64,000 nt of DNA from Marinicella sp. Its GTDB lineage: Bacteria > Pseudomonadota > Gammaproteobacteria > Xanthomonadales > Marinicellaceae. The position numbers and the translations under genes are program-made. Below, piece by piece: positions 1 to 53,678 of the stretch (position 1 is the stretch's first letter; the number at the start of each line of letters is the position of its first letter). The stretch lies in NCBI GenBank assembly GCA_965230295.1, contig OZ246001.1:3808001-3872000 (forward strand), given 5' to 3'. The notes under the pieces were generated by a model. That model worked only from the letters and a program-made list of their open reading frames with translations, ran no database searches and was not told the origin of the DNA.

Positions 1-1116
1 CCATTTAGCCTTTCTACACTCAATAGTAGAAATGGTTTTGCTATACATGGTCAACATCATAGCGATTTTTCAGGCCGTTCAGTTAATTCTGCAGGTGATT
101 TCAATGGCGATGGAGTTGATGATTTGATTATTGGAGCCCATGGAGCAAATCCAGGTGTTGGAGCAAATACTGGTAAAAGTTATGTGATTTTTGGCAGCGA
201 CGAAGAGAATGGTTTGCCTCATCCGTTTGATTTATTTCATATCAATCCACAGAATGGCTTTGTTATTAATGGCGAAGATGCGGGTGATGATTCGGGAATT
301 TCAGTCAATTCTGCAGGCGATGTCAATGGCGATGGTATCGATGATTTAATCATTGGGGCGGATGGTGCTGATCCAGATGGCAAATTAAATGCTGGTAAAA
401 GTTATGTGATCTTTGGTAGAACCGAACCGTTGACCAGCCCGTTCAATTTATCTGAACTCAACAGCCAAGACCAAGACGGGTTTGTCATCAAAGGTGAAAA
501 TGAATTTGATAATTCGGGCGTATCAGTCAGTTCAGCTGGTGATTTCAATGGCGATGGGATCGATGATTTAATTATTGGTGCTAATGGTGCAGGTCTAATT
601 GGCCAACCCGATATTGGTAAAATTTATGTGATCTTTGGAAGTGATCATGAATTGACGAATCAGTTTAATCTATCTAATGTTAATGGACTAAATGGTTTCG
701 TTATAAATGGTGAAAATGCAGGAGATAATTCGGGAATTTCAGTCAATTATGCAGGTGATGTTAATGGCGATGGTGTCGATGATTTAATCATTGGGGCAGA
801 TGGTGCTGATCCAGATGGCAAATCAAATGCTGGTAAAAGTTATGTGGTTTTTGGAAAAAATGGCTGTTTACCCAGTTCACTTAATCTATCAAATCTTGAT
901 GGTAATAATGGTTTTACTATCAACGGTGAAAATGAAGGTGATAATTCGGGAAATTCAGTCAATTCTGCAGGTGATGTTAATGGTGATGAGATTGATGATT
1001 TGATTATCGGAGCTTATACTGCCGATCCGAATGGTGCTTCTGGTGCTGGTAAAAGCTATGTGGTCTTTGGCAGCAAGAGCGATATTATTTTCGAAAGTGC
1101 GTTTGACTGTAATTAG
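1..1116 (+). CDS. FG-GAP/integrin-alpha-like beta-propeller protein (5' end outside window)
   Basis: Frame open from base 1; five GD[FV]NGDG/ExDDLIIGA...GKSYV[IV]FG repeats visible; ends SDIIFESAFDCN. Confidence 0.9.
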   Translation, partial: PFSLSTLNSRNGFAIHGQHHSDFSGRSVNSAGDFNGDGVDDLIIGAHGANPGVGANTGKSYVIFGSDEENGLPHPFDLFHINPQNGFVINGEDAGDDSGISVNSAGDVNGDGIDDLIIGADGADPDGKLNAGKSYVIFGRTEPLTSPFNLSELNSQDQDGFVIKGENEFDNSGVSVSSAGDFNGDGIDDLIIGANGAGLIGQPDIGKIYVIFGSDHELTNQFNLSNVNGLNGFVINGENAGDNSGISVNYAGDVNGDGVDDLIIGADGADPDGKSNAGKSYVVFGKNGCLPSSLNLSNLDGNNGFTINGENEGDNSGNSVNSAGDVNGDEIDDLIIGAYTADPNGASGAGKSYVVFGSKSDIIFESAFDCN

Positions 1117-1222
1117 AAATAAATCTATGACTCGAAAGGTTATTAGCTTTTGGGAGTGTGGCGACCTTTTTAGTAAACTCACTACTATGTCACTGTGATT
1201 TTACTATTTATTTTTTTAGCAT

Positions 1223-1540
1223 GTGACAAAAAGAACAAATATAGTTTTTTGTCTTATTATCCATCAAGTAGCTCTTGCTCAGTTTTCCTTTGAATTAGAC
1301 TTGTCTAATTCAAACGGCCAAAATGGTTTCATTATCAATGGCAAAAATGCAGGAGATGAATTGGGTTATTCAGTCAGTTCAGCTGGTGATGTCAATGGAG
1401 ATGGAGTCGATGATTTGATTATTGGTGCCTTTAGTGCCAATCCAAATGATACTTTTGGGGCAGGTAAAAGTTATATAGTCTTTGGCAGCAAGGGCGATAA
1501 AGTTTTTAAAAGCCCGTTTGATGGGTTTGTCTGTCATTAG
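1223..1540 (+). pseudogene. Internally deleted FG-GAP gene (single repeat joined to C-terminal tail)
   Basis: 5' DNA nearly identical to the 1633 gene; damaged signal peptide; one repeat, then tail GDKVFKSPFD. Confidence 0.75.
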
Positions 1541-1632
1541 GAATAAATCTTTGACTCAAGAGATTACTAATTTTAAAGAGTACGGTGACCTTTTTAATAA
1601 ACTCCACTATGTCAGTGTGAGTTTACTATTGA

Positions 1633-3045
1633 TTGTTTTTAGTATATGAAAAAAAGAAAAATATAGTTTTTGCCTTATTATCAACTGTGCTGAGTCATCA
1701 AGTAGTTTTTGCTCAGTTTTCCGTTGAATTAGACTTGTCTGATTTAAACGGCCAAAATGGTTTCATTATCAATGGCGAAAATGCAGGAGATGAATTGGGT
1801 TATTCAGTCAGTTCAGCAGGCGATGTCAATGGTGATGGGATTGATGATTTAATTATTGGTGCCAATGGTGCACGTCATAATGGTGAGTCAAGTGCTGGCA
1901 ATAGCTATGTGATATTTGGTAACGAGGGGTTTTTATCTGGTTCATTTAACCTACCCAATCTCAATGGTAAAAATGGATTTGTTATTAATGGACAAAATGG
2001 AGTTGATTTTTCATCGGGTTGGTCAGTCAGTTCAGCTGGCGATGTCAATGGTGATGGTGTTGATGATTTGATTATTGGCGCATCTAATGTAGATCCAAAT
2101 CATCAGTTAAGAACAGGAAAAAGTTATGTGATCTTTGGTAGTTTAGACATTTTCCCGCGCTCTCTTAATTTAGCCACTCTTAATGGTGATAATGGTTTTG
2201 TTATCAATGGCGAAAATAGAGGTGATTATTTGGCTCAATCAGTCAGCTCAGCAGGTGATGTCAACAATGACGGGGTTGATGATTTAATCATTGGAGCCCT
2301 TGGTGCAGATCCGGATGGTCGGTCTAATGCAGGGAAAAGTTATGTGATTTTTGGCAGTGACGAAGAGAATGGATTATCTCATCCGTTTAACCTGATTGAT
2401 ATCAATGGTGAAAACGGATTTGTCATCATTGGCGAGAATGCAGATGATTTTTTGGGTTATTCTGTCAGCTCAGCAGGTGATGTCAACAAAGACGGGATTG
2501 ATGATTTGATCATTGGTGCATATCGTGCAGAATCAGATGCCGGGAAAAGTTATGTTATTTTTGGCAGTGACGAAGAGAATGGCTTACCTCATCCGTTTAA
2601 CCTGATTGACATCAATGGTGAGAATGGTTTTGTTATCAATGGTGAAAATGATGGTGATGAATCGGGCCGTACAGTTAGTTCAGCTGGTGATGTCAATGGT
2701 GATGGGGTCGATGATTTGATTATTGGAGCTTATAAAGCAGATTCAGATGGTCGGCCAAACACAGGTAAAAGTTATGTGGTATATGGCAGTAAAATTGAGT
2801 TTCCTAGCCAGTTAAACCTATCCACCCTCGATGATGAAAATGGCTTCGTGATCAATGGCAAAAAAAATGGTGATGGACTGGGTCGTTCAGTTAGTTCAGC
2901 TGGTGATTTCAATAATGATGGAGTGTCCGATATGATTATTGGGGCACCTAATAATAAATGTGATAATTCAGGTAAGAGTTATGTTATTTTTGGAATGAAT
3001 GACAATAACGAAGTTGTTTTCAGAAATGGGTTTGATTGCATTTAG
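1633..3045 (+). CDS. Secreted FG-GAP propeller protein, 6 repeats
   Basis: Signal-like N-terminus ending VFA-QF; 6 GD[VF]NxD repeats; tail NEVVFRNGFDCI; the paralog-like ATG at 1646 is out of frame by one A. Confidence 0.85.
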   Translation: MFLVYEKKKNIVFALLSTVLSHQVVFAQFSVELDLSDLNGQNGFIINGENAGDELGYSVSSAGDVNGDGIDDLIIGANGARHNGESSAGNSYVIFGNEGFLSGSFNLPNLNGKNGFVINGQNGVDFSSGWSVSSAGDVNGDGVDDLIIGASNVDPNHQLRTGKSYVIFGSLDIFPRSLNLATLNGDNGFVINGENRGDYLAQSVSSAGDVNNDGVDDLIIGALGADPDGRSNAGKSYVIFGSDEENGLSHPFNLIDINGENGFVIIGENADDFLGYSVSSAGDVNKDGIDDLIIGAYRAESDAGKSYVIFGSDEENGLPHPFNLIDINGENGFVINGENDGDESGRTVSSAGDVNGDGVDDLIIGAYKADSDGRPNTGKSYVVYGSKIEFPSQLNLSTLDDENGFVINGKKNGDGLGRSVSSAGDFNNDGVSDMIIGAPNNKCDNSGKSYVIFGMNDNNEVVFRNGFDCI

Positions 3046-3136
3046 GTTGAGAATATTCCATTCACAAATTAGTCAGCAAGCAGCCATTTTTCCATTTTTG
3101 AATTAAATCCATTGAAATCAATTATTAAAAAAACCT

Positions 3137-3163
3137 TGCAACAAAACTGATGGCTGCTGCAAC
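3137..3163 (+). promoter_or_regulatory. Putative operator TGCAAC-N15-TGCAAC
   Basis: tgcaacaaaactgatggctgctgcaac; same 21-bp-spaced motif at 7 other loci upstream of secreted-protein genes. Confidence 0.55.
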
Positions 3164-3558: not shown

Positions 3559-5154
3559 ATGAAAATAAAGAAAAAAGTAAGTGTAACATTATTGTTGGCT
3601 TTATTGAGCCATCAAATAGCTTTGGCACAATTTCCAGTTGAGCTAGAGTTATCTGATTTGAATGGCCAAAATGGCATTGGCATTAATGGAGAAAAATTTG
3701 GTGATTTTTCAGGCTCTTCAGTCAGTTCTGCTGGTGATTTCAATGACGATGGGATCGATGATTTGATTATTGGGGCCTATAATTCAGGTGCAGGTAAAAG
3801 CTATGTGATCTTTGGAAGTTCTACTGGTTTGAATCTATTTAACTTGGGTTCCCTTAATGGCAAAAATGGTTTTGTGATAAATGGCGAAAGCTATGGCGAT
3901 GATTCAGGTCTTTCGGTCAGTTCAGCCGGTGATTTCAATGGCGACGAAATTGATGATTTGATTATTGGAGCCCCCGATGCGTTTCTAAATGGTGGACGAT
4001 CTGTTGGTAAAAGTTATGTAGTCTTTGGTAGATCGGAAGGTTTGCCCAACTCATTAAATTTGTCCGAGCTCAATGGTGAAAATGGCTTTGTGATCAACGG
4101 CGAAAATGAAAGAGATTTTTTAGGTAGATCAGTCAGTTCGGCTGGTGATTTTAATGGTGATGAAATTGATGATTTAATTATTGGGGCTTTCGGCGCAGAT
4201 CCGGACGGAGAAACAAATGCTGGTAAAAGTTATGTGGTGTTTGGTAGTACGGCAGATTTGCCTCGCACACTTAATTTGTCTACCCTAAATGGAGAAAATG
4301 GTTTTGTTATCAATGGCGAAAACGCAGGTGACCATTTGGGTTATTCAGTCAGTTCAGCTGGAGATTTTAATGGTGATGAAGTTGATGATTTGATTTTAGG
4401 AGCCTATGGTGCAGATCCAGACGGCCAATCATTTGCAGGTAAAAGTTATGTGGTCTTTGGCAGTGACGATGAAAACGGTTTACCAAATTCTTTTAACCTT
4501 TCCTCCCTCAATGGCGAGAATGGTTTTGCAATACATGGCCAAAATCAAGATGATTTTTCGGGTCAATCAGTCAGTCTTGCCGGTGATGTCAATGGCGATG
4601 GGTTAGATGATTTGATTATTGGAGCCTTTAATTCAGGCGCAGGCGCAGGTAAAAGTTATGTGGTCTTTGGCAACACTGAAGGTTTATCCAATCCACTAAA
4701 CTTATCCACCCTCAACGGCGAGACTGGATTCGTTATCAACGGCGAAAATGAGAATGACGGTTCGGGTTATTCAGTCAGTTCAGCCGGTGATGTTAACGGT
4801 GATGGGGTTGATGATTTAATTATCGGCGCAGATTTAGCAGATTCTGATGATGCAATAAATGCTGGTAAAAGTTATGTGGTCTTTGGTAGCACAGAGGGTT
4901 TTCCCAATCCGTTTAACCTCTCCGATCTTGATGGTTTAAATGGTTTTGTTATCAATGGTGAAAATAGGGGGGATCTTTCGGGACATTCAGTCAGTTCAGT
5001 CGGTGATGTTAATGGTGATGAAGTTGATGATTTAATTATTGGAGCATATTTTGCTTGTGACCGTTCGGGTAGGAGTTATGTGGTCTATGGTCAGAATAAC
5101 GATGGGAGTAATAATGGTGACATAATTTTTAAAAATGGATTTGGATGTATGTAG
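3559..5154 (+). CDS. Secreted FG-GAP propeller protein, 7 repeats
   Basis: Sec signal MKIKKK...ALA; 7 repeats; tail GDIIFKNGFGCM. Confidence 0.93.
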   Translation: MKIKKKVSVTLLLALLSHQIALAQFPVELELSDLNGQNGIGINGEKFGDFSGSSVSSAGDFNDDGIDDLIIGAYNSGAGKSYVIFGSSTGLNLFNLGSLNGKNGFVINGESYGDDSGLSVSSAGDFNGDEIDDLIIGAPDAFLNGGRSVGKSYVVFGRSEGLPNSLNLSELNGENGFVINGENERDFLGRSVSSAGDFNGDEIDDLIIGAFGADPDGETNAGKSYVVFGSTADLPRTLNLSTLNGENGFVINGENAGDHLGYSVSSAGDFNGDEVDDLILGAYGADPDGQSFAGKSYVVFGSDDENGLPNSFNLSSLNGENGFAIHGQNQDDFSGQSVSLAGDVNGDGLDDLIIGAFNSGAGAGKSYVVFGNTEGLSNPLNLSTLNGETGFVINGENENDGSGYSVSSAGDVNGDGVDDLIIGADLADSDDAINAGKSYVVFGSTEGFPNPFNLSDLDGLNGFVINGENRGDLSGHSVSSVGDVNGDEVDDLIIGAYFACDRSGRSYVVYGQNNDGSNNGDIIFKNGFGCM

Positions 5155-5280
5155 GTACAAGTCATTCAAGAAAGAATTTTTAATTGTGAGGTCTGCGGCG
5201 GTTTTTATAAAGTCTGACATCACTGAAACCTATTTCGTAATTTTTCATTACTTATATGCAAATAACATAAGTCTACATTT

Positions 5281-6879
5281 ATGAAAATAAGAAAAATATT
5301 TATCATTTCTTTAATTTTAGGGTTGAACAACCAAATAGTCTTAGCGCAGTTTCCAGCAGAAATTGAACTAACTGACTTGAACGGTCTAAATGGACTAATT
5401 ATCAATGGCGAAAATACAGGCGATGTTTCAGGTTTCTCTGTAGCTTCAGCAGGCGATGTCAATGGTGATGGGATTGATGATTTAATTATTGGGGCTTTCG
5501 GCGCAGATCAGGGCGGAGAGTCAAGTGCTGGTAAAAGCTATGTGATCTTTGGGAGTAGGAATGGTTTCTCCAATCCGTTGAACCTATCCACCCTCAACGG
5601 TGAAAACGGGTTTGTGATTAATGGCGAAGATACAGATGATTTCTCAGGTATTTCTGTCAGTTTAGCTGGAGATTTTAATGGTGATGAGATTAATGATTTG
5701 ATCATTGGGGCATCTGGTGCAGACCCAGATGCGCAGTCAAGGGCTGGAAAAACTTATATTATATTTGGTAATAGATATTTTCCTAGTTCGCTTCATTTAT
5801 CCGCCCTCAACAGTGAGAATGGGGTTGTCATCAATGGTGAAAATACAAATGATAATGCTGGTAAGTCAGTCAGTTCAGCTGGTGATTTCAATAATGATGG
5901 GATTGGTGATTTGATTATTGGGGCCTATGGTGCAGAAACAATAACAGGTAAAAGTTATGTGGTCCTTGGCAGCACTAGAGGTTTACCCAACAATCCGTTT
6001 GATCTGGCCACTCTCAACGAAGAAAATGGCTTCGTTCTCAATGGTGAAACCATTGGTGATAGCTCAGGAGCACATGTCAGTTCCGCAGGTGATGTCAATG
6101 GTGATGGAATTGATGATTTGATTATTGGGGCCTATACTGCAGATTCAGGTATTATATTTAATGCAGGTAAAAGTTATGTGGTTTTTGGTACTACCGACGA
6201 ATTACCCAGTCCGTTTCACTTGTCCGATCTTGATGGCTTAAATGGTTTTGTCATTCATGGTGAAAATGATAGTGATAATGCTGGTGTTTCAGCCAGTTCA
6301 GCTGGGGATGTTAATGGCGATGGAGTTGATGATTTAATTATTGGAGCTTATAAAGCAGATTCAGATGGTCGACCAAACACAGGTAAAAGTTATGTGGTAT
6401 ATGGCAGTACAACTGCATTTTCTAATCGGTTGAAACTTCGCGACCTAAATGGTGAAAATGGCTTTGTTATCAATGGCGAAAATACAAATGATTTCCTAGG
6501 AGGTTCAGTCAGCTCTGCAGGTGATGTCAATGGTGATGGGTTTAGCGATTTGATCATTGGGGCTACTGGTGCAGATTCAGGTGCGGGTAAAAGCTATGTG
6601 GTTTTTGGGAATTTAACTTCCTGTTTATCGAAGTCACTTAATCTAGACACCCTCAATGGTGAAAATGGATTTGTTATCAATGGTGAAAAAGCGGGAGATA
6701 ACGCAGGTATTTCAGTCAGTTCAGCTGGTGATGTCAATGGGGATGGGATTGACGATTTGATTATTGGAGCTTATAGTGCTGATCACAATAACGAATCAAA
6801 TGCTGGTAAAAGCTATGTAGTCTTTGGAATCAATAACAATGACGATATGATTTTCGAAGATGGGTTTGATTGTATTTAG
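5281..6879 (+). CDS. Secreted FG-GAP propeller protein, 7 repeats
   Basis: Sec signal MKIRK...VLA; 7 repeats; tail DDMIFEDGFDCI. Confidence 0.93.
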   Translation: MKIRKIFIISLILGLNNQIVLAQFPAEIELTDLNGLNGLIINGENTGDVSGFSVASAGDVNGDGIDDLIIGAFGADQGGESSAGKSYVIFGSRNGFSNPLNLSTLNGENGFVINGEDTDDFSGISVSLAGDFNGDEINDLIIGASGADPDAQSRAGKTYIIFGNRYFPSSLHLSALNSENGVVINGENTNDNAGKSVSSAGDFNNDGIGDLIIGAYGAETITGKSYVVLGSTRGLPNNPFDLATLNEENGFVLNGETIGDSSGAHVSSAGDVNGDGIDDLIIGAYTADSGIIFNAGKSYVVFGTTDELPSPFHLSDLDGLNGFVIHGENDSDNAGVSASSAGDVNGDGVDDLIIGAYKADSDGRPNTGKSYVVYGSTTAFSNRLKLRDLNGENGFVINGENTNDFLGGSVSSAGDVNGDGFSDLIIGATGADSGAGKSYVVFGNLTSCLSKSLNLDTLNGENGFVINGEKAGDNAGISVSSAGDVNGDGIDDLIIGAYSADHNNESNAGKSYVVFGINNNDDMIFEDGFDCI

Positions 6880-7406: not shown

Positions 7407-9038
7407 ATGAAAATAAGAAAAAAAGCAAGTTTTGCTTTATTATCAACAGTATTGGGGCATAATTTAGCGTTCGCCACATTACCTCGTCAATTAGATTTAT
7501 CTGATTTGAATGGTCAAAATGTCTTGGTTTTTAATGGTGAAAATGCTAATGATCGCTTGGGTCGATCTGTAAGTTTTGCAGGTGATGTCAATGGAGATGA
7601 AATCGATGATTTAATTATTGGTGCCTATAATGCAGATTCAGGTAGTGAATCACGTGCAGGTAAAAGTTATGTAGTCTTTGGTACTGAGGATAACTTGCCT
7701 AGCTCATTTGATCTGTCTACACTCGATGGTGAGAATGGCTTTGTTATCAATGGCGAAAATAGCCGTGATCTATCGGGTTATTCTGTCAGTTCAGCCGGAG
7801 ACTTTAATAATGATGGTGTTGATGATTTAGTTATTGGAGCATTTGGTGCCAGTATCGATACTAATTTAAGTGTTGTTTCAGATGTCGGTAAAAGTTATGT
7901 GATTTTTGGTAGTAAATTAGGTTTTCCTAGTTTACTTGAATTGTCCACTCTCAATGGTGTAAATGGTTTTATTATCATTGGTGAAACTGAAGAAGATTAT
8001 TCGGGGGTTTCAATCAGTTCAGCAGGTGATGTCAATGGAGATGAAATTGATGATTTAATTATTGGGGCGTATGGTGCAGGATCTGATGCCGGTAAAAGTT
8101 ATGTGATTTTCGGCAGTGAGGAAGAATTAACCAGCCCGTTAAATTTATCAAATCTCGATGGTGAGAATGGTTTTGTAATCAATGGCGAGAATGCAGGCGA
8201 TTCTTCTGGCCTTTCTGTCAATTCAGCTGGCGATGTAAATCATGATGGGATTGATGACATAATTATTGGGGCTTTCGGCGCAGATCCGGGCGGAGAGTCA
8301 AGTGCTGGTAAAAGTTATGTAATCTTTGGCAGTGACGATGAGAACGGCTTGCCTAATCCTTTTAACTTATCCTCCCTCAATGGTGAAAATGGTTTTGCAA
8401 TACATGGTCAATATGATGGTGATTTATCGGGCGAATCAGTCAGTTCAGCAGGTGATGTCAATGGTGATGGAATTGATGACTTGGTTATTGGTGCATTCGG
8501 CGCAGATCCAGGTGAAGTGTTAGGTGCTGGAAAAAGTTATGTGATCTTTGGTAGCCCGGATAATATACCCCATCCGTTTGACCTATTTGATATCAATGGA
8601 CAGAATGGTTTTGTTATTAATGGTGAAAATGCATTTGATGCATCTGGTCATTCAGTGAGTTCAGCCGGCGATATCAATAATGATGGGATCGATGATTTGA
8701 TTATTGGGGCTCTGGGTGCTGATCTGGGTACTGACTTAGATGTTGGCAAAATTTATGTGGTCTTTGGCAGTGATGAGACTTTTCTCAACCCGTTTAACTT
8801 GTCTGACATCAACTTCAAATGTGAAAATACTTTTCTTCAAAATGCTTTTCTCATTAAAGGCGAAAATACAGGTGATAATGCTGGCACCTCCGTCAGTTCA
8901 GCCGGTGATTTTAATCATGATGGGATTGGTGATTTGATCATTGGAGCCGAAGGGGTTAATTCAAGAACTGGCAAAAGCTATGTTGTCTTTGGCCGCGAGA
9001 GCGAAATCATTTCTGCAAATGGCTTTGATTGTATGTAA
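7407..9038 (+). CDS. Secreted FG-GAP propeller protein, 7 repeats
   Basis: Sec signal MKIRKK...AFA; 7 repeats; tail SEIISANGFDCM. Confidence 0.93.
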   Translation: MKIRKKASFALLSTVLGHNLAFATLPRQLDLSDLNGQNVLVFNGENANDRLGRSVSFAGDVNGDEIDDLIIGAYNADSGSESRAGKSYVVFGTEDNLPSSFDLSTLDGENGFVINGENSRDLSGYSVSSAGDFNNDGVDDLVIGAFGASIDTNLSVVSDVGKSYVIFGSKLGFPSLLELSTLNGVNGFIIIGETEEDYSGVSISSAGDVNGDEIDDLIIGAYGAGSDAGKSYVIFGSEEELTSPLNLSNLDGENGFVINGENAGDSSGLSVNSAGDVNHDGIDDIIIGAFGADPGGESSAGKSYVIFGSDDENGLPNPFNLSSLNGENGFAIHGQYDGDLSGESVSSAGDVNGDGIDDLVIGAFGADPGEVLGAGKSYVIFGSPDNIPHPFDLFDINGQNGFVINGENAFDASGHSVSSAGDINNDGIDDLIIGALGADLGTDLDVGKIYVVFGSDETFLNPFNLSDINFKCENTFLQNAFLIKGENTGDNAGTSVSSAGDFNHDGIGDLIIGAEGVNSRTGKSYVVFGRESEIISANGFDCM

Positions 9039-13153: not shown

Positions 13154-14269
13154 ATGAAAATTAGACTTTATAAGCCCTTGATTTTGATTTTATTTTCTTA
13201 CTGTACATATGCAGAACGAATTACAACGCTCATTCCACAAAAATTGCACCCATTGGATGAAACATTAATCGCTGTCATTGATATTCCTGAATTTGCCACC
13301 ACCGAACAGACAGTTCCTGCCTGTTTGATCGTTCATGGTTCTGGCGGATTATTTTCTGCGGGTGAGGTGGGTGAAGATTGCGATACAAGTGTAGATAATA
13401 TAGATAGTCGCTATGAAGATCTTATGGATCTTCTGGCCGGTGTTCATGTGGCCACGTTAGCCCCCTCCAGTTTTGTTTCAAGAGACCCCAGATTTTGCGA
13501 AGACAATGATGAAGATTATTTTCAGTTTGTGGCCCCTCCATTTCACCATCCGAATGACGGGGTTCCCCCCCAGCGAGATAATTATTATGAAATGCGAAGA
13601 ATAGTGATCAGAACATTAGATATGTTTGCCGGATACAGTTTCTTGTGCTCTTTAGAAAATATTGATTGTTCCAACACATGTATGGTCGGAACATCTAATG
13701 GTGCAAGCACCATCTTCAGTTACATAGGGAATGATATTGGGCGGCACATCAAAGAGTATACTGACATAACTCAACAGAGAGAACATGAAACTCAATCTAA
13801 TTTTGAAGATAGGATAACCGCTTTTCAGAATTTTCCTAATTTGCCAGAAAACATTGATGATTGGCTTAATCATAAAATTGAACCAAAATTTGCGAACGCC
13901 ATTTCTCCTGGGTGTTTTCTACGGAAATTGATTCCAACCATCACTGCCGGTGACAGTGATTTTGATGCAAAAAAACATATGACAGATCTTTATTACCCAT
14001 CCGGTCAAACCAATTTATACCTCGAAATTGGCACTGAGGACGGTATACCGGACAATTGTTACGATGGAGGAATCAGACAAATTCAAGCAAGTGACTATGA
14101 ATTTCTTAACTCAATTCCATTGGAAGATTCCAAGTACATCATCTCCACGTATGAAAATGCTCCGCATAATTTATTGAGAGAAGAAAAGGCAGGGCAATTG
14201 ATCCGTGACAAGATTAAAAAATCAGCCATTGACTATTTCTATTTAATTTTTCGTAATACATTCGAATGA
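13154..14269 (+). CDS. Secreted alpha/beta hydrolase (dienelactone-hydrolase-like fold)
   Basis: Signal peptide, HGSGG oxyanion motif, GTSNG nucleophile elbow, GTED and YENAPH acid/His motifs; tail YLIFRNTFE. Confidence 0.75.
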   Translation: MKIRLYKPLILILFSYCTYAERITTLIPQKLHPLDETLIAVIDIPEFATTEQTVPACLIVHGSGGLFSAGEVGEDCDTSVDNIDSRYEDLMDLLAGVHVATLAPSSFVSRDPRFCEDNDEDYFQFVAPPFHHPNDGVPPQRDNYYEMRRIVIRTLDMFAGYSFLCSLENIDCSNTCMVGTSNGASTIFSYIGNDIGRHIKEYTDITQQREHETQSNFEDRITAFQNFPNLPENIDDWLNHKIEPKFANAISPGCFLRKLIPTITAGDSDFDAKKHMTDLYYPSGQTNLYLEIGTEDGIPDNCYDGGIRQIQASDYEFLNSIPLEDSKYIISTYENAPHNLLREEKAGQLIRDKIKKSAIDYFYLIFRNTFE

Positions 14270-14678: not shown

Positions 14679-16268
14679 ATGAAAACGATTAAAATTGGCA
14701 TATGGATTGTTTATGCCTTGTTGATTCAAGGAACAAAAGCTTTTGCTGGATTTGGTGCGGAGTTTAACCTAGCTGATGTAAATGGAAATAATGGTCTGAC
14801 AATTCACGGAGAGCACGCCGATGATCGTTCTGGTGTTTCGGTTAACAGTGCAGGTGATGTTAATGGAGACGGAATTTCTGACATCATCATCGGTGCTCCA
14901 AACGCAGGTCGCAGCTATGTGGTATTTGGCAGTGATCATGGATTTTCTGACCCATTTTCTCACCCTTTGTATTTGGCAAGTTTGAATGGGACAAACGGCT
15001 TCATTATCAATGCCGCAGAAAACAATGATGGTTCGGGCCAGTCTGTTGCCTCCGCTGGCGATTTTAATAAAGATGGCATTACAGATTTACTCATAGGGGC
15101 ACCAAGGGCATTATCAAGTAACGCCGGAGCCGCTTATGTCATATTTGGCAATAGAGAAGAAGATTTCGCAAACCCATTCGAATTGTCTGATGTGGATGCT
15201 GATAACGGATTGGTTATCCATGGTCATGATTTCGCTGAGCAATTGGGGTTTTCTGTTAGTTCAGCTGGTGATATCAATGGTGATGATATAGATGACATCA
15301 TCATTGGCGCACACAGAGGCACTAGTAATGGCTTTGTCGATAATGGTACAATTTATGTGGTATTTGGCAATGAAGCAGGACTTTCAAGCCCATTTAATGT
15401 GAGTTCTATTGATGGAATCAATGGCTTCAAAATCAATGGCCTTCAAGAACATTCTGCACGGTCCGGGGCTTCTGTTGACAAAGCTGGTGATGTCAATGGT
15501 GACGGTATTTCAGATCTTCTGATTGGCGTGCCTGACGCCACATCTAATGGCATGGAAGACTCAGGCATGGCATTTATAATTTTTGGAACAATCAATGGAT
15601 TTCCCAACCCCATTAACCTTTCAAGTGTAGATGGAGTGAATGGTATTCAAATCAATGCTGAACACCCTAGAGGCCTACTAGGTCGGTCTGTCAGTTCACT
15701 TGGTGATGTTAATGGTGATGGCACAGACGACATCATCCTTGGAGCACCAACACCTGCAACTGATAGTACCGGTGAAGGGGTTGCGTATGTCATCTTTGGT
15801 AGTGATGATCAATTGGCACATCCATTTAATGTATCAACCATCAATGGGTTGAATGGATTCAAAATCACAAGCAACACACTCCATTCCAAACTTGCTAGTT
15901 CAGTAAGTGGAGCTGGCGATATCAATGGTGATGGATTAACAGATATCATAATAGGTGAACCTGAATCTCACCCAGATGGCGTTTTTGAGGCAGGAAGAGG
16001 TCATGTGATATTTGGTAGGAATCAGCGCTTCTCTAATCCTTATAACATTGATAATGTTAATGGTACAACAGGGTATGTCATTAATGGCATAAATGAACTT
16101 GACTTATCAGGAGTCTCTATCAATGAAGCGGGAGATTTTAACCACGATGGCTATGGTGATATCGTTATTGGAGCAAGTGGTGCTGATCCATTTGCTGCTC
16201 CTGACGCTGGCAGCAGTTATGTGATATTTGGGAAAGAACAACCCATTTTTGCTGATGGGTTTGATTGA
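14679..16268 (+). CDS. Secreted FG-GAP propeller protein, 7 repeats (divergent subfamily)
   Basis: Signal ending AFA; 7 repeats; tail QPIFADGFD. Confidence 0.93.
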   Translation: MKTIKIGIWIVYALLIQGTKAFAGFGAEFNLADVNGNNGLTIHGEHADDRSGVSVNSAGDVNGDGISDIIIGAPNAGRSYVVFGSDHGFSDPFSHPLYLASLNGTNGFIINAAENNDGSGQSVASAGDFNKDGITDLLIGAPRALSSNAGAAYVIFGNREEDFANPFELSDVDADNGLVIHGHDFAEQLGFSVSSAGDINGDDIDDIIIGAHRGTSNGFVDNGTIYVVFGNEAGLSSPFNVSSIDGINGFKINGLQEHSARSGASVDKAGDVNGDGISDLLIGVPDATSNGMEDSGMAFIIFGTINGFPNPINLSSVDGVNGIQINAEHPRGLLGRSVSSLGDVNGDGTDDIILGAPTPATDSTGEGVAYVIFGSDDQLAHPFNVSTINGLNGFKITSNTLHSKLASSVSGAGDINGDGLTDIIIGEPESHPDGVFEAGRGHVIFGRNQRFSNPYNIDNVNGTTGYVINGINELDLSGVSINEAGDFNHDGYGDIVIGASGADPFAAPDAGSSYVIFGKEQPIFADGFD

Positions 16269-33833: not shown

Positions 33834-33844
33834 AATTTACACTC

Positions 33845-39825: not shown

Positions 39826-41262
39826 GCCGGGGATTTTAATGGTGATGGCATCGACGACCTCATCATTGGCGCTTGCAGAGCTACCCCTGATGCTGTTAAT
39901 AATGCTGGGCGCAGCTATGTTGTTTTTGGCACACAATCTGGTTTATTTAACCCTTTGGCATTAAGCGATTTGGATGGTTCAAATGGGTTTGTCATAGATG
40001 GTCATATTCCTAATGGTTCATCAGGCAGATCGGTGGCATCCGCTGGAGATGTGAATAACGATGGCATTGATGACATTCTGATTGGTGCACCAGAAGCAAC
40101 AAATCAAGTTACACAAGCAGGCATTGTTTATTTGATTTATGGCTCAGATGAAGGTTTCTCTGCACAGCTGAACTTGAACGACCTGAATGGTATCAATGGG
40201 GCGGTCATAAACGGAAACTACATTCAAAGCCGTTTTGGCCATTCAGTGAATGCCGCCGGTGATGTCAATAACGACGGCATTGATGACATCATAATCGGTG
40301 CACCTGATGTTGATAGCAATGACGTTGTTAGATCTGGTGCTGCGTATATCATTTTTGGTCATGAGCAGGGGTTGATTCATCCTTTGGGTGTATCTGACCT
40401 GAATGGAATCAATGGTTTTGAAATTCGCGGAATAACACAAGAAAATTCAAGAATTGGATATTCAGTGGCTGAGGCTGGCGATGTCAATGCAGATGGCATC
40501 TCAGACATCATCATCGGTAGTGCCTATTTAGTAGGCCATATCGGCGATTTTAATGCCGGTCAGAGTTATGTTGTCTTTGGCAGTGATCAGCGGTTCCCAA
40601 ATCCGTTACAGTTATCTGAGTTAAGTGGAAGTAATGGGATCCAGATTTTAGGTGAACATGCAGATGATCAATCGGGATTTGCGGTGAGTGCTGCGGGAGA
40701 TATCAACCATGATGGCATTGATGATTTTGCCATCGGTGCTGTCGGTACGGATCATAATGGGTTAGAAAATTCAGGATCTGTGTATGTGATTTATGGGGGT
40801 CATTCAGAGCTTCCTCACCCTTTTAACCTGAGTTCAATCAATGGCGTTAATGGCTTTCGATTGGATGGAACTGATGCGAGAGCCAATTTTGGGAATGCAA
40901 TCAGTAAAGCACAAGACATTAACCTGGATGGCATGGATGACATCATTATTGGGGCTTTTACTGCACCTGTTCCCTCAGTGACTGATGCGGGCAAAGCATA
41001 TGTCATCTATGGCAGTGATCAACCCATAGGCCACCCCTTCAATCTTTCTGCTTTAAATGGGCTTAATGGATTTGCTGTTTTAGGGTCGGATAATGACAAT
41101 CTGGGGAGCAGCGTGAGCGGAATGGGAGATTTCAATAACGACGGAATTAGCGATCTGATTATTGGTGCTTTTAATGCGGCTGTTGAAGATCAAAGCCGTG
41201 CAGGAAAAAGTTATCTGATATTCGGTACCGAGCAGGCCCTTTTTGCCAATGGTTTTGACTGA
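39823..41262 (+). pseudogene. FG-GAP propeller gene lacking signal peptide and 5' end
   Basis: All 7 Ca-loop repeats present but begins mid-repeat at AGDFNGD; tail QALFANGFD. Confidence 0.8.
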
Positions 41263-41286
41263 CCCTATTAATCTATTTGCGAGCAT

Positions 41287-41735: not shown

Positions 41736-43343
41736 ATGAAACCTCAAAAACAACTTTACTGGGCGTTGCTTACGTCTGTATTTTTTAACAACACATCACA
41801 CGCTGGCTTTGATGCCGAATTGAGCTTGAGCGAAATTGAGGGCCTGAACGGCATCGTTGTTCAAGGAGAAAACCCCCATGATATTGCTGGGTTTTCGGTC
41901 AGTCATGCGGGTGACCTCAATGGCGATGAAATTGATGATTTCGTTATTGGTGCTTATGGCGTAGATGAAGGGATTGCCCAGAATGCGGGTCGCAGCTATG
42001 TGGTGTTTGGTTCTGCCTCAGGTTTACCCAGCCCATTGAATCTCTCTACTTTGGATGGCAATAATGGTTTTACCATTCACAGTTCAGCCACCAATGGGGG
42101 CTTTGGTCATTCAGTCAGTCATGCTGGTGATGTGAATCACGATGGATTGGATGATTTAATCATAGGCGCACCTTACTCCAATGTGACCACAATATTCCAA
42201 ACTGGGGCGGCGTACGTGATTTTTGGCCAAGACGAAGGCTTTGACAATGTCATAAATGTTGAAGATTTGAATGGCGATAACGGCTTTGCTATTTTTGGTA
42301 ATCAACAACAGAGTACTTTAGGTTTTTCAGTTTCATCGGCAGGTGACATCAATGATGATGGCATTGATGATGTCATTATCAGTGCACCAAAGACCGATAA
42401 CAATGGTGTCAATGATTCAGGTGCCGCATATGTGATTTTTGGAGATGACTCTGGATTTCCTCACTCTCTTTCCATCTCTGCTTTAAACGGTCTGAACGGA
42501 TTTGAAATTCGTGGTTTTCCATTTCAGTTTAATGGCCCTGAATTAAAAGTAAGTTCGGCAGGAGATGTCAATCACGATAACATCAATGACGTTGTTATTG
42601 GAGGCCCCAGAGTTGGGATAGATGGGCAGGAAGAAGCTGGTGTCGCTGTGGTGGTCTATGGACAATCAACACGCTTTCCTAATCCTGTGCAGATGTCAGA
42701 GATAGATGGTGATAATGGCGTGCATATTTATGGCATTGCTGCATTTGATCAAACCGGTTACAGCGTCAGTGAAGCCGGTGATGTCAATGCCGATGGCATA
42801 GATGACCTGATCATTGGGGCCAGAAGAACTGATTTTAATGTCACCAATACTGGATCGGCATACGTGGTTTATGGTCAATCATCAGGGCTTGCGCATCCTC
42901 TGGATTTAAACGACATCAATGGACTCAACGGCTTTCGCATAGATGGAAACTTATTAGGTGCTGAATTAGGCACTTCTGTCCATTCAGCCGGTGATATCAA
43001 TCATGATGGTATAAACGATCTGGTTGTGGGCGCACCAGACGATTTAGTACCAGATACAAATGCAGCAGGTAAAAGTTATGTGATATATGGCTCTGATCAG
43101 GGCATTGGACATCCCATTAATGTGGCGGCTTTGGATGGCAACAATGGCTTTGCCATCGCAGGTTCGGATGACAATGGGAAATCAGGGCAGGCTGTCAGCC
43201 AGGCTGGTGATGTGAACAACGATGGCATCAGCGACTTCATCATAAGTGCCCATTTAGCTGGTGCCAATGGCATAAATGCAGCAGGAAAAACTTATGTGGT
43301 TTATGGCCGTGAAAAGCCTTTGTTTAAAGGTGGTTTTGAATGA
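41736..43343 (+). CDS. Secreted FG-GAP propeller protein, 7 repeats
   Basis: RBS AGGAGG; signal ending SHA; 7 repeats; tail KPLFKGGFE. Confidence 0.93.
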   Translation: MKPQKQLYWALLTSVFFNNTSHAGFDAELSLSEIEGLNGIVVQGENPHDIAGFSVSHAGDLNGDEIDDFVIGAYGVDEGIAQNAGRSYVVFGSASGLPSPLNLSTLDGNNGFTIHSSATNGGFGHSVSHAGDVNHDGLDDLIIGAPYSNVTTIFQTGAAYVIFGQDEGFDNVINVEDLNGDNGFAIFGNQQQSTLGFSVSSAGDINDDGIDDVIISAPKTDNNGVNDSGAAYVIFGDDSGFPHSLSISALNGLNGFEIRGFPFQFNGPELKVSSAGDVNHDNINDVVIGGPRVGIDGQEEAGVAVVVYGQSTRFPNPVQMSEIDGDNGVHIYGIAAFDQTGYSVSEAGDVNADGIDDLIIGARRTDFNVTNTGSAYVVYGQSSGLAHPLDLNDINGLNGFRIDGNLLGAELGTSVHSAGDINHDGINDLVVGAPDDLVPDTNAAGKSYVIYGSDQGIGHPINVAALDGNNGFAIAGSDDNGKSGQAVSQAGDVNNDGISDFIISAHLAGANGINAAGKTYVVYGREKPLFKGGFE

Positions 43344-44614: not shown

Positions 44615-47146
44615 ATGCACAAAGCTTTCAATGCTCTTTTAGTGCTTTTGTCTCTGTACTTATTATCTGGTGAAACAAAGTCACAGATTCTTGCTGAGTA
44701 TTTAAATAACTTTTCGAAAAACATAATACTTCAGTGTGATTCTGAAAAAAACAAGAATATAGTTCAGGAAAATTCTAACGTTGTTGGTGAATATGTCTTT
44801 CAAGAGTTTAGTTCACCATCACCATATCTTGGCAAAGAAAGCATGGATGTCTCTCATGAACTTGTTTGGACTGAGACAATTCACTCATCTGATGCCTCAT
44901 ACATTTCACCTTACTTTAGTCAATACGATATTAAGCCAGAAGACTTCTTTGTTTTAAGATCACCAGATCACACAAGATCTTGGACATATGATTTTGAAGA
45001 GTTAGCTAGTTTTAATGGCAAGGGTTTTTGGGGCATACCAATTCATGGTGATACTGCAATCGTTGAATTATATGCAGGTACAAAACAAGGTTCTGGCGGT
45101 ATAACTATTGGTAAGTTTGCAAAAGGCTTTCCTAAAGATATAGAAAAAACCCAATTCAGATCAATTTGTGGCACAGATGACAGTGAAGAAGCCGTATGTT
45201 ATCAATCAACAGAGCCAACTGTCTATGAAAAATCTCTTGCCGTTGTAAGGCTCAATATTGGTGGTGTCATAGCATGTACAGGTTGGCTCGTAGGCAATGA
45301 AGGACATGTCATTACAAATGAACATTGTATAAGCGTTCAAGCAGCTGCAGAAGTTACTTCAATTGAGTTTTTAGCTGAGGGAGCTGAGTGTTCAGATGAC
45401 TGTACATATCCATTTGGCTGTCCAGGAATCATTGAAGCAGCTTCATCACAAGTAGTAAAAATGAATGCTGATTTAGATTATGTTTTGCTCAAACCCAATA
45501 ACCCAATTAACGACCTTCCCTCGACCTATGGCTATTTACAAATGAGGGAAACCGGTGCAGAAATAAATGAACAAATATATATTCCACAACACCCTCGAGC
45601 TTGGGGCAAAAGGATTGCTTATTTTTCAACTGATACAGCTTCAGGCTTAGGAGAAGTTCACAGTTTGAACATGCCACCATGCTCCTTGGTAGGAAGCGAT
45701 GTTGGATATCTATTAGATACACAAGGTGGTTCTTCAGGGTCTCCGGTGATTTCATACGACGACCATAAAGTAGTCGCTCTTCATCATTGTGGAATATGCC
45801 CAAATCGAGGGGTTCCTATAGAAAGTATCATTGATGACTTGGGAGACGATTTACCCAATTCTGCTCTATGCGACTCACCAGAACCACCATTAAATCTAGC
45901 GGCTCAACAAAAGAATGACAATGAAATTCAGCTGACTTGGAGTCATGGTGTTGGTGCAGATTCTTACGACATATACAGATCAGTTGGTATGTGTACACAT
46001 CAATCTTTGGATTATCAACTTATTGCTTCAAAAGTGGTTGGAACCTCATTTATTGATACAACTGTCTCAGGAAATACCACATATTCTTATAAATTGAAAT
46101 CACACAATCAAACTGTTCAATGTGATTCTTTATTCACTGAATGCTCATATGCAACAGCAACAGGGTTATGTACCATGGCCCCAACTTTTGATGGTTTGGA
46201 AACGATATCCTCATCACAATCACCAATTTGTAAAACCTCTTTACAGTGGTCACAAGCGGATCAAAATTGTGGAACTAACATCAGTTACAACATTTACAGG
46301 GATACTGTTGATGATTTCCAACCATCAGTGCAAAATTTAATTTCTGCTTGTGTGGATGGTTTATCATTTAATGACTTTGACCTTCAAAGTGATGCTACAT
46401 ATTATTATTCAGTACAAGCAGAAGACAACAGTGGTAATGGATCAGGGTTGTGTGGTTTTGGTAATGAAAACACGAGCCTCACCCAATCAGGTATTAGACC
46501 AATGGGCCCTAATTCGGTTGTATTTTTTGATGAAGTTCCATCAAGCCAACCCAACGATGCATGGATCGCTGTTAATGGTTCAGGGGATGATGGATCTACC
46601 CATAATTGGTCAATCACTGATTCCCGCTCATTTTCTCCACCTTATTCTTGGTTCATTCAAGAATATTCAGGTAACAAAGAAAAGTTGTTAATTTACAATA
46701 ATTCGCTAAGTGTAAACAATGAGTTTTATATGCTTGAGTTTAACCAGTTTATGGGGCTTGAAAGACTTAAAAGTGGAGCTGTTTTAGAATACTCAACAGA
46801 CAATGGGGCTACTTGGTATGACATACTTAGAGGGAATGGAGTAACTGTGCCCGACAATTCAAGTCGTATTGAACAAACAGGTTATAATGAAAATCCTTTA
46901 ATTGGTGATGGTGTATTAGCTGGTAGATTAGCATGGACTGGTAACACTTACGACGGCTGGCAAAATGTAAAAGTCTCCTTAGCTGATTTTGATGGAACTG
47001 ACATCAAACTCAGATGGCGATATGGTTCTGATTCGAGTGGCAATAACTATGGGTGGTATGTAGATGATGTCAAAATTTACTCTACATCTTCATGTATAAA
47101 CATAGCAGATGACTTAATTTTCATTAACGGATTTGGAGAAGTTTAA
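44615..47146 (+). CDS. Secreted trypsin-like (S1, lysyl-endopeptidase-like) serine protease with FN3 and jelly-roll domains
   Basis: SICGTDD, CTGWLV, TNEHC, LDY, DTQGGSSGSPV triad; two FN3-like repeats; GWYVDDVKI; tail DDLIFINGFGEV. Confidence 0.9.
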   Translation: MHKAFNALLVLLSLYLLSGETKSQILAEYLNNFSKNIILQCDSEKNKNIVQENSNVVGEYVFQEFSSPSPYLGKESMDVSHELVWTETIHSSDASYISPYFSQYDIKPEDFFVLRSPDHTRSWTYDFEELASFNGKGFWGIPIHGDTAIVELYAGTKQGSGGITIGKFAKGFPKDIEKTQFRSICGTDDSEEAVCYQSTEPTVYEKSLAVVRLNIGGVIACTGWLVGNEGHVITNEHCISVQAAAEVTSIEFLAEGAECSDDCTYPFGCPGIIEAASSQVVKMNADLDYVLLKPNNPINDLPSTYGYLQMRETGAEINEQIYIPQHPRAWGKRIAYFSTDTASGLGEVHSLNMPPCSLVGSDVGYLLDTQGGSSGSPVISYDDHKVVALHHCGICPNRGVPIESIIDDLGDDLPNSALCDSPEPPLNLAAQQKNDNEIQLTWSHGVGADSYDIYRSVGMCTHQSLDYQLIASKVVGTSFIDTTVSGNTTYSYKLKSHNQTVQCDSLFTECSYATATGLCTMAPTFDGLETISSSQSPICKTSLQWSQADQNCGTNISYNIYRDTVDDFQPSVQNLISACVDGLSFNDFDLQSDATYYYSVQAEDNSGNGSGLCGFGNENTSLTQSGIRPMGPNSVVFFDEVPSSQPNDAWIAVNGSGDDGSTHNWSITDSRSFSPPYSWFIQEYSGNKEKLLIYNNSLSVNNEFYMLEFNQFMGLERLKSGAVLEYSTDNGATWYDILRGNGVTVPDNSSRIEQTGYNENPLIGDGVLAGRLAWTGNTYDGWQNVKVSLADFDGTDIKLRWRYGSDSSGNNYGWYVDDVKIYSTSSCINIADDLIFINGFGEV

Positions 47147-52164: not shown

Positions 52165-52260
52165 AGAATCCTCCGGTTTCAGTAAAAACAACTTTATGAC
52201 TAAATATCAGTTGTAATAGATTTGCAGCAATTTGCATAATCTATCGTTATATTTATATCA

Positions 52261-52275
52261 ATAGAATTTATCTAT
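52261..52275. promoter_or_regulatory. OxyR/LysR-type box ATAG-N7-CTAT upstream of katG
   Basis: atagaatttatctat, with further ATAG/CTAT units nearby. Confidence 0.4.
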
Positions 52276-52454
52276 GACCAATATTTTAAATAGATCAGAT
52301 TGATCTATTTTTACGAAGATGCAGCTAATATGTGTTCAATTTCGAACACTTTTATATTTAATAAATCTGAGTTAAGAGCTGAATATTTATGCTTTCATGA
52401 TTCTGATGACACAAATGGAGAGTACAGTGCCAAAGTAAAACTCATCTTCATTAA

Positions 52455-53678
52455 CTATGGACAGCTGGCAGACCAAGCGCTCGTGTCTCCTGACTCAAAT
52501 CCATCAGAGAATACAGCATCTACATTGACATCTCTGACATACAGATCTGTACCTGTGCTCCCTATTCTCGGTCCACCAACCACCAATCTTGTGTTGTTGG
52601 TGTAGTTACCTTTAAGCTGAACCTGGCATGTAGCAACTGGACCGCCTGTGCCATCTAATGGAAATAAGAAATCATTCATAACTGGTGTGGAAGTATCATA
52701 AGGCTTATAAGACCAGTAATCACCCCATATGGTCTTGTTCAAAACAGGCAGACCGTTGAGATCAAGAAAAGAACTGGTTGTCCCACCTTGAAAAGAAAAT
52801 TGCGAACCATTGTTAACAATCGTCCCTAAATCTCTTTGAACGGCTGCAGCAGGGTTATTTTCAGGCACTTCAACTGATCTGGCAGTACCTTCAGAGTTAT
52901 ATGTGAATGTAATGCCCGTGCCATTGAAGGACCCTGCTCCTTCTTTAACAAAAGTGAAACCACTGGGTGGTGATAAATTCTCAATCGGTGTATGGGTAAA
53001 AGATGCTGAAGAACCAACTGTACTGGTGTGTGTTACCCTGACCTGACCATTGCTCTGTTGATTCAAGCCCATCATATAGCGACCTGAAAAACTGGAGGCC
53101 AAAGGCTCTCTGATACCGCCATCAAACGGACCGGCGGATGTATAACGACCATAAAAAGTGTAATTAGACCCTCCATTGGTTGACCTGAAAATTTCTGTTT
53201 CACCGTCGGTTAAATCATGGGTAGCCACAAAAACCCCATCTTGGGTTAAAGCACAATCTGCATTGTCAAAATCATTGGTGGTGGTACCTGGCATGGTTGA
53301 TGTACTCCAGGTAGATCCATTGTATCTGGCCACTTCTAAGTTAAAGTTTTTGATGTATGGCACAATGACATTGGATCCATCCGTGCAAATATCTCCCAGC
53401 GCAAACAAAACAGATGAGCTATCCAGGGCTGACCCTGTAATACCAGTGCCATTATAAGGAGGTGGAATTCGAACGGTTTGCAGCCGGTTATTCGATCCAT
53501 CGTTCCACAAAACCACAGCCAATAAATCTGGATTGGGTCCAGACGAATATGCACCTAATTTGATTTCCAATGGTTCTTGAAAAAATACTGGGATCGTTTG
53601 CCAGTCCCCCTTAGGATCACCTTTGGCCAGAAATGGTGTAAAAACCCATACCACAAACATCAATTTTAATAATCTCAT
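52455..53678 (-). CDS. Secreted beta-rich protein with Asp-box
   Basis: Signal peptide; FRSTNGGSNY Asp-box; extended tail DAVFSDGFESGDTSAWSASCP. Confidence 0.8.
   Translation of the reverse strand: MRLLKLMFVVWVFTPFLAKGDPKGDWQTIPVFFQEPLEIKLGAYSSGPNPDLLAVVLWNDGSNNRLQTVRIPPPYNGTGITGSALDSSSVLFALGDICTDGSNVIVPYIKNFNLEVARYNGSTWSTSTMPGTTTNDFDNADCALTQDGVFVATHDLTDGETEIFRSTNGGSNYTFYGRYTSAGPFDGGIREPLASSFSGRYMMGLNQQSNGQVRVTHTSTVGSSASFTHTPIENLSPPSGFTFVKEGAGSFNGTGITFTYNSEGTARSVEVPENNPAAAVQRDLGTIVNNGSQFSFQGGTTSSFLDLNGLPVLNKTIWGDYWSYKPYDTSTPVMNDFLFPLDGTGGPVATCQVQLKGNYTNNTRLVVGGPRIGSTGTDLYVRDVNVDAVFSDGFESGDTSAWSASCP

Follow-up and report, generated by a model that had tools for sequence, protein, structure and literature searches.

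A nine-residue C-terminal tail on unrelated exported proteins of Marinicella and its order as a candidate address or docking tag

Several described systems handle many unrelated exported proteins through a common C-terminal module. The C-terminal domain (CTD; PF18962/TIGR04183) of type IX secretion system (T9SS) substrates in Bacteroidota is a folded beta-sandwich of ~75 aa with a dedicated translocon. The tripartite CTERM signals (LPXTG/sortase, PEP-CTERM/exosortase, GlyGly-CTERM/rhombosortase, MYXO-CTERM/myxosortase and IPTL-CTERM) carry a transmembrane (TM) helix and a basic cluster, and NCBIfam also holds NF050076 (sort_motif_YLP), an 11-position 'ultrashort' putative C-terminal sorting motif without known mechanism. 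The type II secretion system (T2SS) takes proteins that entered the periplasm by Sec or Tat and have folded, and exports them; to our knowledge no linear signal is known for this system. Here we describe a tail of nine residues, D-x-[IVL]-F-x-[NDS]-[GST]-F-[DE], on unrelated exported proteins encoded in a window of 64,000 nucleotides from Marinicella sp. (C1:3808001-3872000 of a single-contig genome of 4.008 Mb and 44% G+C, labelled G000; other G-numbers denote the compared genomes and f-numbers the families within the order). We consider this tail to be probably a C-terminal address or docking tag that is read in trans after export, with a probability of roughly 0.6.

The tail resembles the T9SS CTD in that it is a C-terminal module on unrelated exported passengers, and in orthologues of two of these a T9SS domain stands at the position of the tail, as described below. 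However, it is only 9 aa long, predicted to be disordered and proteobacterial, and neither PF18962 nor TIGR04183 matched the tail proteins scanned (ten with Pfam, nine with NCBIfam). With the tripartite CTERM signals it shares a many-to-one, lineage-restricted distribution, dozens of tagged proteins per genome and a frequent position behind 'choice-of-anchor' type domains. Unlike them, it lacks both the TM helix and the basic cluster; hence an intramembrane or membrane-bound sorting enzyme could not read it likewise. No cognate sorting enzyme was found, C13 peptidase being the sole class tested (sortase, exosortase and rhombosortase were not searched). NF050076 is comparably short but different in sequence, and gave chance-level matches only in G000 (E 0.15-0.65, frames of 22-65 aa). 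The beta-signal of outer-membrane proteins and PDZ ligands (Y-x-F-COOH) are likewise short C-terminal peptides with aromatic residues that are read in the periplasm, whereas the tail ends in an acidic residue in 102 of 108 cases and its passengers are soluble proteins (propellers, beta-helices, enzymes), not barrels. In the whole-protein scans of the same ten and nine tail proteins, no Pfam or NCBIfam model covered the tail. The 24-residue end peptides matched none of these models at E up to 10, and the listings from full-text literature searches, motif strings included, showed no paper describing it. The tail thus groups with the C-terminal sorting signals but fails the defining tests of the named families tested, and judging from its sequence it is best called an ultrashort, undescribed variant of such signals.

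In positions 1-53678 of the window, 20 frames finish in, or a few residues past, the motif; two of these tails are degenerate variants, one belongs to a remnant open reading frame (ORF) and one is a long form. They were confirmed by ORF listing and six-frame scans, and are given below with the residues that follow them; LTD and LRR denote lamin-tail domain and leucine-rich repeat.

1081..1107, plus strand: DIIFESAFD followed by CN; FG-GAP protein, ORF start beyond the window start, end at 1116
1496..1522, plus strand: DKVFKSPFD, degenerate, followed by GFVCH; 105-aa FG-GAP gene fragment 1223-1540
3010..3036, plus strand: EVVFRNGFD followed by CI; FG-GAP protein 1633-3045
5119..5145, plus strand: DIIFKNGFG followed by CM; FG-GAP protein 3559-5154
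6844..6870, plus strand: DMIFEDGFD followed by CI; FG-GAP protein 5281-6879
9003..9029, plus strand: EIISANGFD, degenerate variant, followed by CM; FG-GAP protein 7401-9038
14240..14266, plus strand: YLIFRNTFE at the stop; 371-aa exported protein 13154-14269 without Pfam family
16239..16265, plus strand: QPIFADGFD at the stop; FG-GAP protein 14679-16268
20225..20251, plus strand: DVIFETGFE at the stop; FG-GAP ORF 19154-20254, its 5' part apparently split off as 18667-19284
22268..22294, plus strand: DLIFTNSFE followed by S; CotH kinase and LTD protein 20579-22300
23843..23869, plus strand: DTVFIDTFE at the stop; LRR protein 22670-23872
25709..25735, plus strand: DIIFYNSLD at the stop; DUF285/PARCEL-repeat and DUF11 protein 23978-25738
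27009..27035, plus strand: DMIFIDTFE followed by FDAFE; LRR protein 26094-27053
28411..28437, plus strand: QAIFVNGFD at the stop; 171-aa FG-GAP-like fragment 27925-28440
29816..29842, minus strand: SAIFTNGFE followed by FD; FG-GAP protein 29807-31387
32185..32211, plus strand: DLIFRNDFE followed by 8 aa; short remnant frame (44 aa open upstream) that adjoins a Tn7-like element
41233..41259, plus strand: QALFANGFD at the stop; FG-GAP ORF 39823-41262
43314..43340, plus strand: KPLFKGGFE at the stop; FG-GAP protein 41703-43343
47111..47137, plus strand: DLIFINGFG followed by EV; trypsin-like peptidase with a MAM/choice-of-anchor-J-like domain, 44615-47146
52458..52520, minus strand: long form DAVFSDGFESGDTSAWSASCP; 407-aa exported protein 52455-53678

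The passengers belong to the Pfam families FG-GAP propeller, CotH with LTD, LRR, DUF285/DUF11 and trypsin-like peptidase with a MAM-like domain, and two window passengers have no Pfam family. The tail is not present on KatG (49906-52191), the cyclophilin (58277-58870), the 53793-54689 protein, the lipoprotein (16789-18009) or the 43997-44539 protein of the window.

Subsequently, the whole genome was examined. A loose regular expression, which left position -9 free and allowed six residues at -7, was run over all G000 ORFs of at least 80 aa. It gave 181 matches. The motif directly precedes the stop in 60 of them and is no more than 12 aa away from it in 110; the remaining matches are mostly due to chance, apart from a few genuine internal copies. 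Crude gene calling then yielded 108 tail-bearing ORFs, 60 of them ending exactly at the motif. Their consensus is D-[LV]-I-F-x-[DNS]-[GD]-F-[ED], with D at -9 in 86/108, I at -7 in 92/108 and F at -2 in 104/108; the final residue is E in 65, D in 37 and G in 6. No position-specific conservation was seen upstream of -9 in these tails, and the residues past the motif number at most 12 and are not hydrophobic. At the DNA level, the pattern [hydrophobic]-F-x-[DNSG]-[GDE]-F-[DE]-stop occurred 48 times in G000, compared with once for the reversed pattern used as the control. The 108 tails are encoded by 106 distinct 27-mers with synonymous codon usage close to that of the genome; the tail DLIFADDFE, which occurs nine times, is encoded by a different DNA each time. 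These results indicate selection on the peptide, and an origin of the tail as a DNA repeat or mobile element was accordingly rejected. The residues after the tail often include a single Cys (CI, CN, CM, SGC, AQVCP, TCPSF, SASCP and ISPDACK at G000 loci).

Tail-bearing proteins were enriched in export leaders. A crude signal-peptide rule was positive in 86/108 tail ORFs and in 1148/3316 others (odds ratio 7.4, p 6e-21). Among the 22 that it missed, most have visible leaders by eye or are gene fragments, and two are apparent chance matches in cytoplasmic proteins. The tail also occurs on a G000 protein with a lipoprotein-type leader (1816483-1819062) and on one with a twin-arginine-type leader (RRNFLK; 1044597-1045925), a look-alike of DUF1501 proteins. 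DUF1501 proteins of G398 (RRQF) and G454 (RRKF), each encoded beside a DUF1800 gene, combine a twin-arginine leader with the same tail. The presence of the tail behind twin-arginine-type as well as other leaders suggests a signal that is independent of the inner-membrane route. When 81 tail proteins of 150-640 aa, taken from 131 at 120 loci of other genomes, were surveyed with Pfam, they fell into 40 families, mostly of beta-helix, propeller, Ig-like, protease and nuclease types.

The distribution of the tail was examined with the DNA pattern given above. It was enriched in 23/23 congeners. Within the order (Lysobacterales/Xanthomonadales by record titles), 151 evenly sampled genomes were compared: 76 had at least 8 matches, 20 had 2-7 and 55 had 0-1. 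Family f12 is split into three tail-rich genera and remaining genera with none, and in family f2 only G438 is tail-rich. None of the 300 genomes of the class outside the order (~200 families, including the unpublished G154 and G308 with 1 match each, which enter into this count alone) exceeded 3 matches, which is the background level. A scan of one genome per species across all prokaryotes matched at least 120 stretches, 80 of them listed with record titles. Named sources among the matches listed were Marinicella, Marinicellaceae, Lysobacterales, Rhodanobacteraceae, Dokdonella, Rudaea, Ahniella(ceae), Wenzhouxiangellaceae, Aquimonas, and metagenome-assembled genomes (MAGs) of unclassified Proteobacteria and 'Alcanivoracaceae'. 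Matches in Bdellovibrionales and Hoeflea were dismissed as chance, there being no ORF at the site.

An original prediction, made from the window alone, had proposed a C-terminal tail common to unrelated exported proteins, and this was borne out by the 108 ORFs, their ends at the stop and their leaders. Every tail that it quoted is present in the sequence, and the C-terminal enrichment that it offered as a check was observed (110/181). Its statements that the tail lacks a TM helix and a basic cluster, that the exported KatG and the cyclophilin bear none and that similar tails occur in Xanthomonadales relatives also agree with the present results, and no known model matched the tail. Its restriction of the tail to an 'accessory region' did not hold, because the tail is genome-wide and order-wide.

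Orthologues of two window passengers were then compared at their C-termini, with 120 listed homologues for each. For the CotH and LTD protein (20579-22300), the close gammaproteobacterial homologues all finish in the tail. The next relatives are Flavobacteriaceae/Nonlabens proteins of ~650 aa that are 55-63% identical, and in these the PF18962 T9SS domain starts where the gammaproteobacterial versions stop. In the list, 21 homologues carry the short tail and two more carry near-variants, whereas PF18962 is present in most of the others (not counted exactly). For the protease (44615-47146), 16 listed homologues carry the short tail, 57 a long tail and 7 PF18962. A CTERM signal with TM helix and basic residues was detected in one homologue by regular expression and in two by eye (P0226, P0221, P0240), and others have dockerin-like ends. 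The long-tail homologues end in ..[IL]F-x-DGFESGDTSAWSxxVP-stop, and their named sources are Acidobacteriota and Methylomirabilota MAGs. NCBIfam placed the domain before the protease tail near 'choice-of-anchor J' and sortase-dependent M36 peptidases. The tail therefore occupies the position of T9SS or TM-type signals in orthologues, which backs the comparison with sorting signals drawn in the original prediction. The identity of 55-63% between the CotH and LTD protein and its Flavobacteriaceae relatives suggests, as a separate observation, horizontal transfer between phyla in which the C-terminal signal was exchanged (T9SS domain versus GFE tail).

The long form indicates where the tail may have come from. 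It is scarce in the order, with 1 copy in G000 and 0 in G038, G343, G385 and G036. The 407-aa family to which the G000 copy belongs was found sporadically, in 13/151 genomes of the order, and was accordingly rejected as a core component; its members almost always end in ..W-x(1-3)-C-x. In metagenome contigs, by comparison, DGFE[ST]GD...W occurred 129 times at 120 loci. In 94 of these the protein stops at most 10 residues after the W, usually at W+5; in 6 it stops 11-30 residues on, while 23 continue for more than 30 and 6 run off the contig. When ten of the continuing cases were scanned, 8 matched ConA-like jelly-roll families with profiles beginning at the motif, 3 of them above the curated cut-off. 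At the motif, the match starts from position 1-3 of the PF14099 (Polysacc_lyase) profile and from position 3-5 of CBM_4_9, and Laminin_G_3 also starts there. The full domains comprise ~130-210 residues, whereas the tails stop after one strand (short form) or two (long form). Because the domain profiles begin at the motif, the short form appears to be a copy of the first strand of a ConA-like jelly roll, and the long form a copy of its first two. The resemblance of F-x-DGFESGD..W to a jelly-roll first strand, which the original prediction had remarked on, was thus supported by the scanned continuations. We also modelled the CotH passenger with AlphaFold2 from a 32-row alignment (mean predicted local distance difference test score (pLDDT) 82.5, predicted template modelling score 0.82). 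The last strand of the model comprises residues 546-550, and the tail residues 564-573 are coil with pLDDT below 50; the tail is thus predicted to be a free linear peptide outside the passenger fold.

We then looked for genes that might read the tail. Neighbouring genes were compared around every tail gene of G000 and at 120 loci of other genomes; none recurred except those for extracytoplasmic function (ECF) sigma factors, TPR kinases, a beta-lactamase-fold protein and a penicillin-binding protein. Six G000 modules, each of an ECF sigma factor (PF07638) and a Ser/Thr kinase, directly adjoin a tail gene (L138-L143: 1134978-1139248, 1157202-1162668, 1520012-1525769, 2288610-2293972, 3153229-3160447 and 3240874-3247427). 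Their kinases have an N-terminal kinase domain, one TM helix and a C-terminal, presumably periplasmic TPR region of ~450-550 aa; ECF-sigma genes or TPR kinases recur in loci of other genomes, e.g. L072, L087, L063 and L113. PF07638 was rejected as a co-occurring marker, being found in 151/151 genomes. A legumain-type C13 transpeptidase was considered as a sortase because of the [DN]-G at -4/-3, and was rejected since PF01650 is not in G000, yet is present in the tail-free G036 and G361.

G000 possesses two T2SS gene sets. One, at 857-868 kb, is complete and clustered, and includes a PilM/N-like L, a subtype-b M and a secretin. The other is of the classical Gsp type and lies in three places (gspCDEF, 654-660 kb; gspGHIJK, 2608-2611 kb; gspLMN, 2630-2632.5 kb). 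T2SSC and PDZ domains are present in the GspC of this second set, and PF05134 matches its L. T2SS as such does not track the tail, as family searches for T2SSL and T2SSG gave T2SS with and without tails. A homologue of the classical GspC, however, was present in 73/76 tail-rich, 16/20 intermediate and 15/55 tail-poor genomes, the three tail-rich genomes without a match being fragmented assemblies. In family f12 it was found in 5/5 tail-rich genomes versus 1/12 with 0-1 tails, and the 13th genome, G407 (3 matches), was also positive. In f2 it was present in G438 versus 2 weak matches among 18 others. The PF05134 GspL, searched in ten genomes, agreed with this pattern: it was found in G000, G438, G385, G353 and G030, weakly in G396 and G435, and not in G031, G036 or G361, and in a narrower comparison it was present in 4/4 tail-rich genomes and in neither G036 nor G361. 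This co-occurrence of the classical T2SS with tail-rich genomes is suggestive only.

Two further gene groups lie near the classical gsp genes. A conserved pair consists of a ~90-117-aa tail protein followed by a secreted protein of 320-480 aa ending in hydrophobic-Y (G000 667129-668796, i.e. L121; also L043, L084 and L092); in G000 it is 7 kb from gspCDEF, and neither member of the pair has a Pfam or NCBIfam match. At 2621196-2632512, a same-strand block precedes gspLMN and encodes a lipoprotein, a protein with an outer-membrane-barrel-like end (..NIKYSF), proteins of 454 aa and 314 aa, and a 793-aa membrane protein.

On the reading that we favour, the passenger would cross the inner membrane by Sec or Tat and fold, and the tail, hanging from it as a free, flexible peptide, would then be read in trans in the periplasm or at the outer membrane. 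It would mark proteins destined to leave the periplasm, either for secretion or for retention at the cell surface. By origin it may be a stub comprising the first strand and turn of a ConA-like jelly roll, and a 21-residue sister form (..F-x-DGFESGDTSAWSxxVP) may be used in other phyla. Type II secretion would be the likeliest outer-membrane route, possibly through the second, classical Gsp-type T2SS (PDZ-bearing GspC, PF05134 GspL) that exists beside the subtype-b T2SS. The narrower proposal, in which the tail is a linear, transferable targeting signal for the classical T2SS or for a coupled surface-retention step, is less likely than not; its link to the tail is a correlation only. Several observations weigh against these proposals. 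No receptor, peptidase or transporter was identified, and the gene neighbourhoods of tail genes revealed no machinery for it. The GspC homologue occurs in all 19 sampled f7 genomes though 11 of them have 0-1 tails, it had no match in three f8 genomes with 5-9 real-looking tails, and the pseudopilin GspG is also found in tail-free genomes. Since the sampled genomes are related, the co-occurrence rests on few co-losses and overstates independence. The signal-peptide rule was not only crude but permissive, and a few passengers belong to types that usually stay in the periplasm (azurin-like, GSDH, DUF1501). Finally, a few motif copies are internal or just past the leader (position 39 in G000 1551084-1558106; position 327 at 1225667), so that a free carboxylate is not always needed.

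These internal and N-terminal copies would suit a binding motif better than a carboxylate-dependent signal, and they favour the main rival, namely that the tail docks by strand donation. In this explanation, it would supply the missing first strand of an incomplete ConA-like jelly roll, carried either by a surface scaffold or by other secreted proteins, and so give many passengers a non-covalent tether. The long form is indeed the N-terminal start of ConA-like domains wherever the sequence continues, most metagenome long forms end shortly past the W like a deliberately cut two-strand stub, and the tail is free and unpacked in the AlphaFold2 model. The original prediction had likewise proposed strand complementation onto a scaffold. 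However, the LamG_3 and PF14099 searches of G000 yielded no jelly roll lacking a first strand, a result that did not support that proposal: PF14099 had no significant match, and LamG_3 matched in three places, where both proteins read bear tails themselves. The short form, moreover, retains only about one strand and a turn, and no scaffold-like repeat protein is linked to the tail. We thus regard strand donation as unlikely, although it is the most serious of the alternatives.

The three minor rivals appear weaker still. The acidic residue that closes 102/108 tails would fit a stability or quality-control cap, in which a structured acidic C-terminus shields the protein from tail-specific periplasmic proteases, or avoids setting off envelope-stress sensors of aromatic C-termini, and has no part in sorting; Prc/Tsp prefers non-polar C-termini and DegS reads Y-x-F-COOH. 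For such a cap the last one to three residues would suffice, and the invariant F at -6, the I at -7 and the D at -9 would be left unexplained, as would the true sorting domains at the same place in orthologues and the absence of the tail from periplasmic residents; we consider it improbable. Free periplasmic tails might instead be a regulatory ligand, sensed by the TPR domains of the ECF-sigma-partnered Ser/Thr kinases as the C-termini of outer-membrane proteins are in the sigma-E pathway. TPR carboxylate clamps bind acidic C-terminal peptides, all six modules of a PF07638 sigma factor and a one-TM TPR kinase in G000 adjoin a tail gene, and in other genomes ECF-sigma genes stand beside tail genes at 4 loci and TPR kinases (5 copies) at 4 loci, though no single locus was shown to contain both. 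Yet this adjacency may only reflect sigma control of a secreted neighbour, as most secreted proteins here are tailed; the PF07638 sigma factor is in every genome of the order, tail or none; and six sensors do not explain more than 100 tagged proteins. We give this explanation a slim chance. As for decay, the motif does equal the start of jelly-roll domains, and the tail could be the functionless remnant of a lost C-terminal domain of this type. This is highly improbable, because sequence and exact end are kept on more than 100 unrelated proteins per genome throughout the order while synonymous positions change freely, and because the tail has been newly joined to passengers that were shared horizontally, where it replaces T9SS domains. 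The address or docking tag read after export thus remains our preferred interpretation.

Several other features of the window were also observed. The FG-GAP propeller genes form an array of paralogues (1-9038, 14679-20254, 27925-31387 and 39575-43343), with broken copies at 1223-1540, 18667-19284 with 19154-20254, 27925-28440, and 39575-39964 with 39823-41262. The first cluster extends upstream in the genome (3803983-3809116), and in it Cys-x is added after the tail (GFDC[INM]). A five-gene block of low G+C (32-35%) at 32583-38722 on the minus strand sits inside this array and adjoins the tail remnant at 32185-32211. By its appearance it is a Tn7-like transposon, and it encodes a TnsA-like endonuclease, a Mu-type transposase, an AAA ATPase, a 453-aa protein without family and an integrase-like protein; the Pfam matches are weak. 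In the second LRR gene (26094-27053), the longest frame opens with RLDYN pentapeptides repeated in tandem, ahead of the likely start. KatG (49906-52191, minus strand) has an N-terminal extension resembling a signal peptide, suggesting a periplasmic catalase-peroxidase.

Taken together, these findings describe an order in which tail-rich members tag ~3% of the proteome with a nine-residue end-peptide, which in orthologues takes the place of established sorting domains. How Gram-negative bacteria select folded proteins for outer-membrane passage or display is still open for type II secretion. If the proposed T2SS link is true, more than 100 T2SS cargoes per genome would be labelled by nine residues, this would be the first sequence-defined T2SS signal, and a 21-residue sister tag would do the same in Acidobacteriota and other phyla. 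The tail could also serve as a portable secretion or display tag. Recognising it would help to annotate thousands of 'hypothetical' exoproteins, both in Lysobacterales and, via the long form, in Acidobacteriota and other environmental bacteria.

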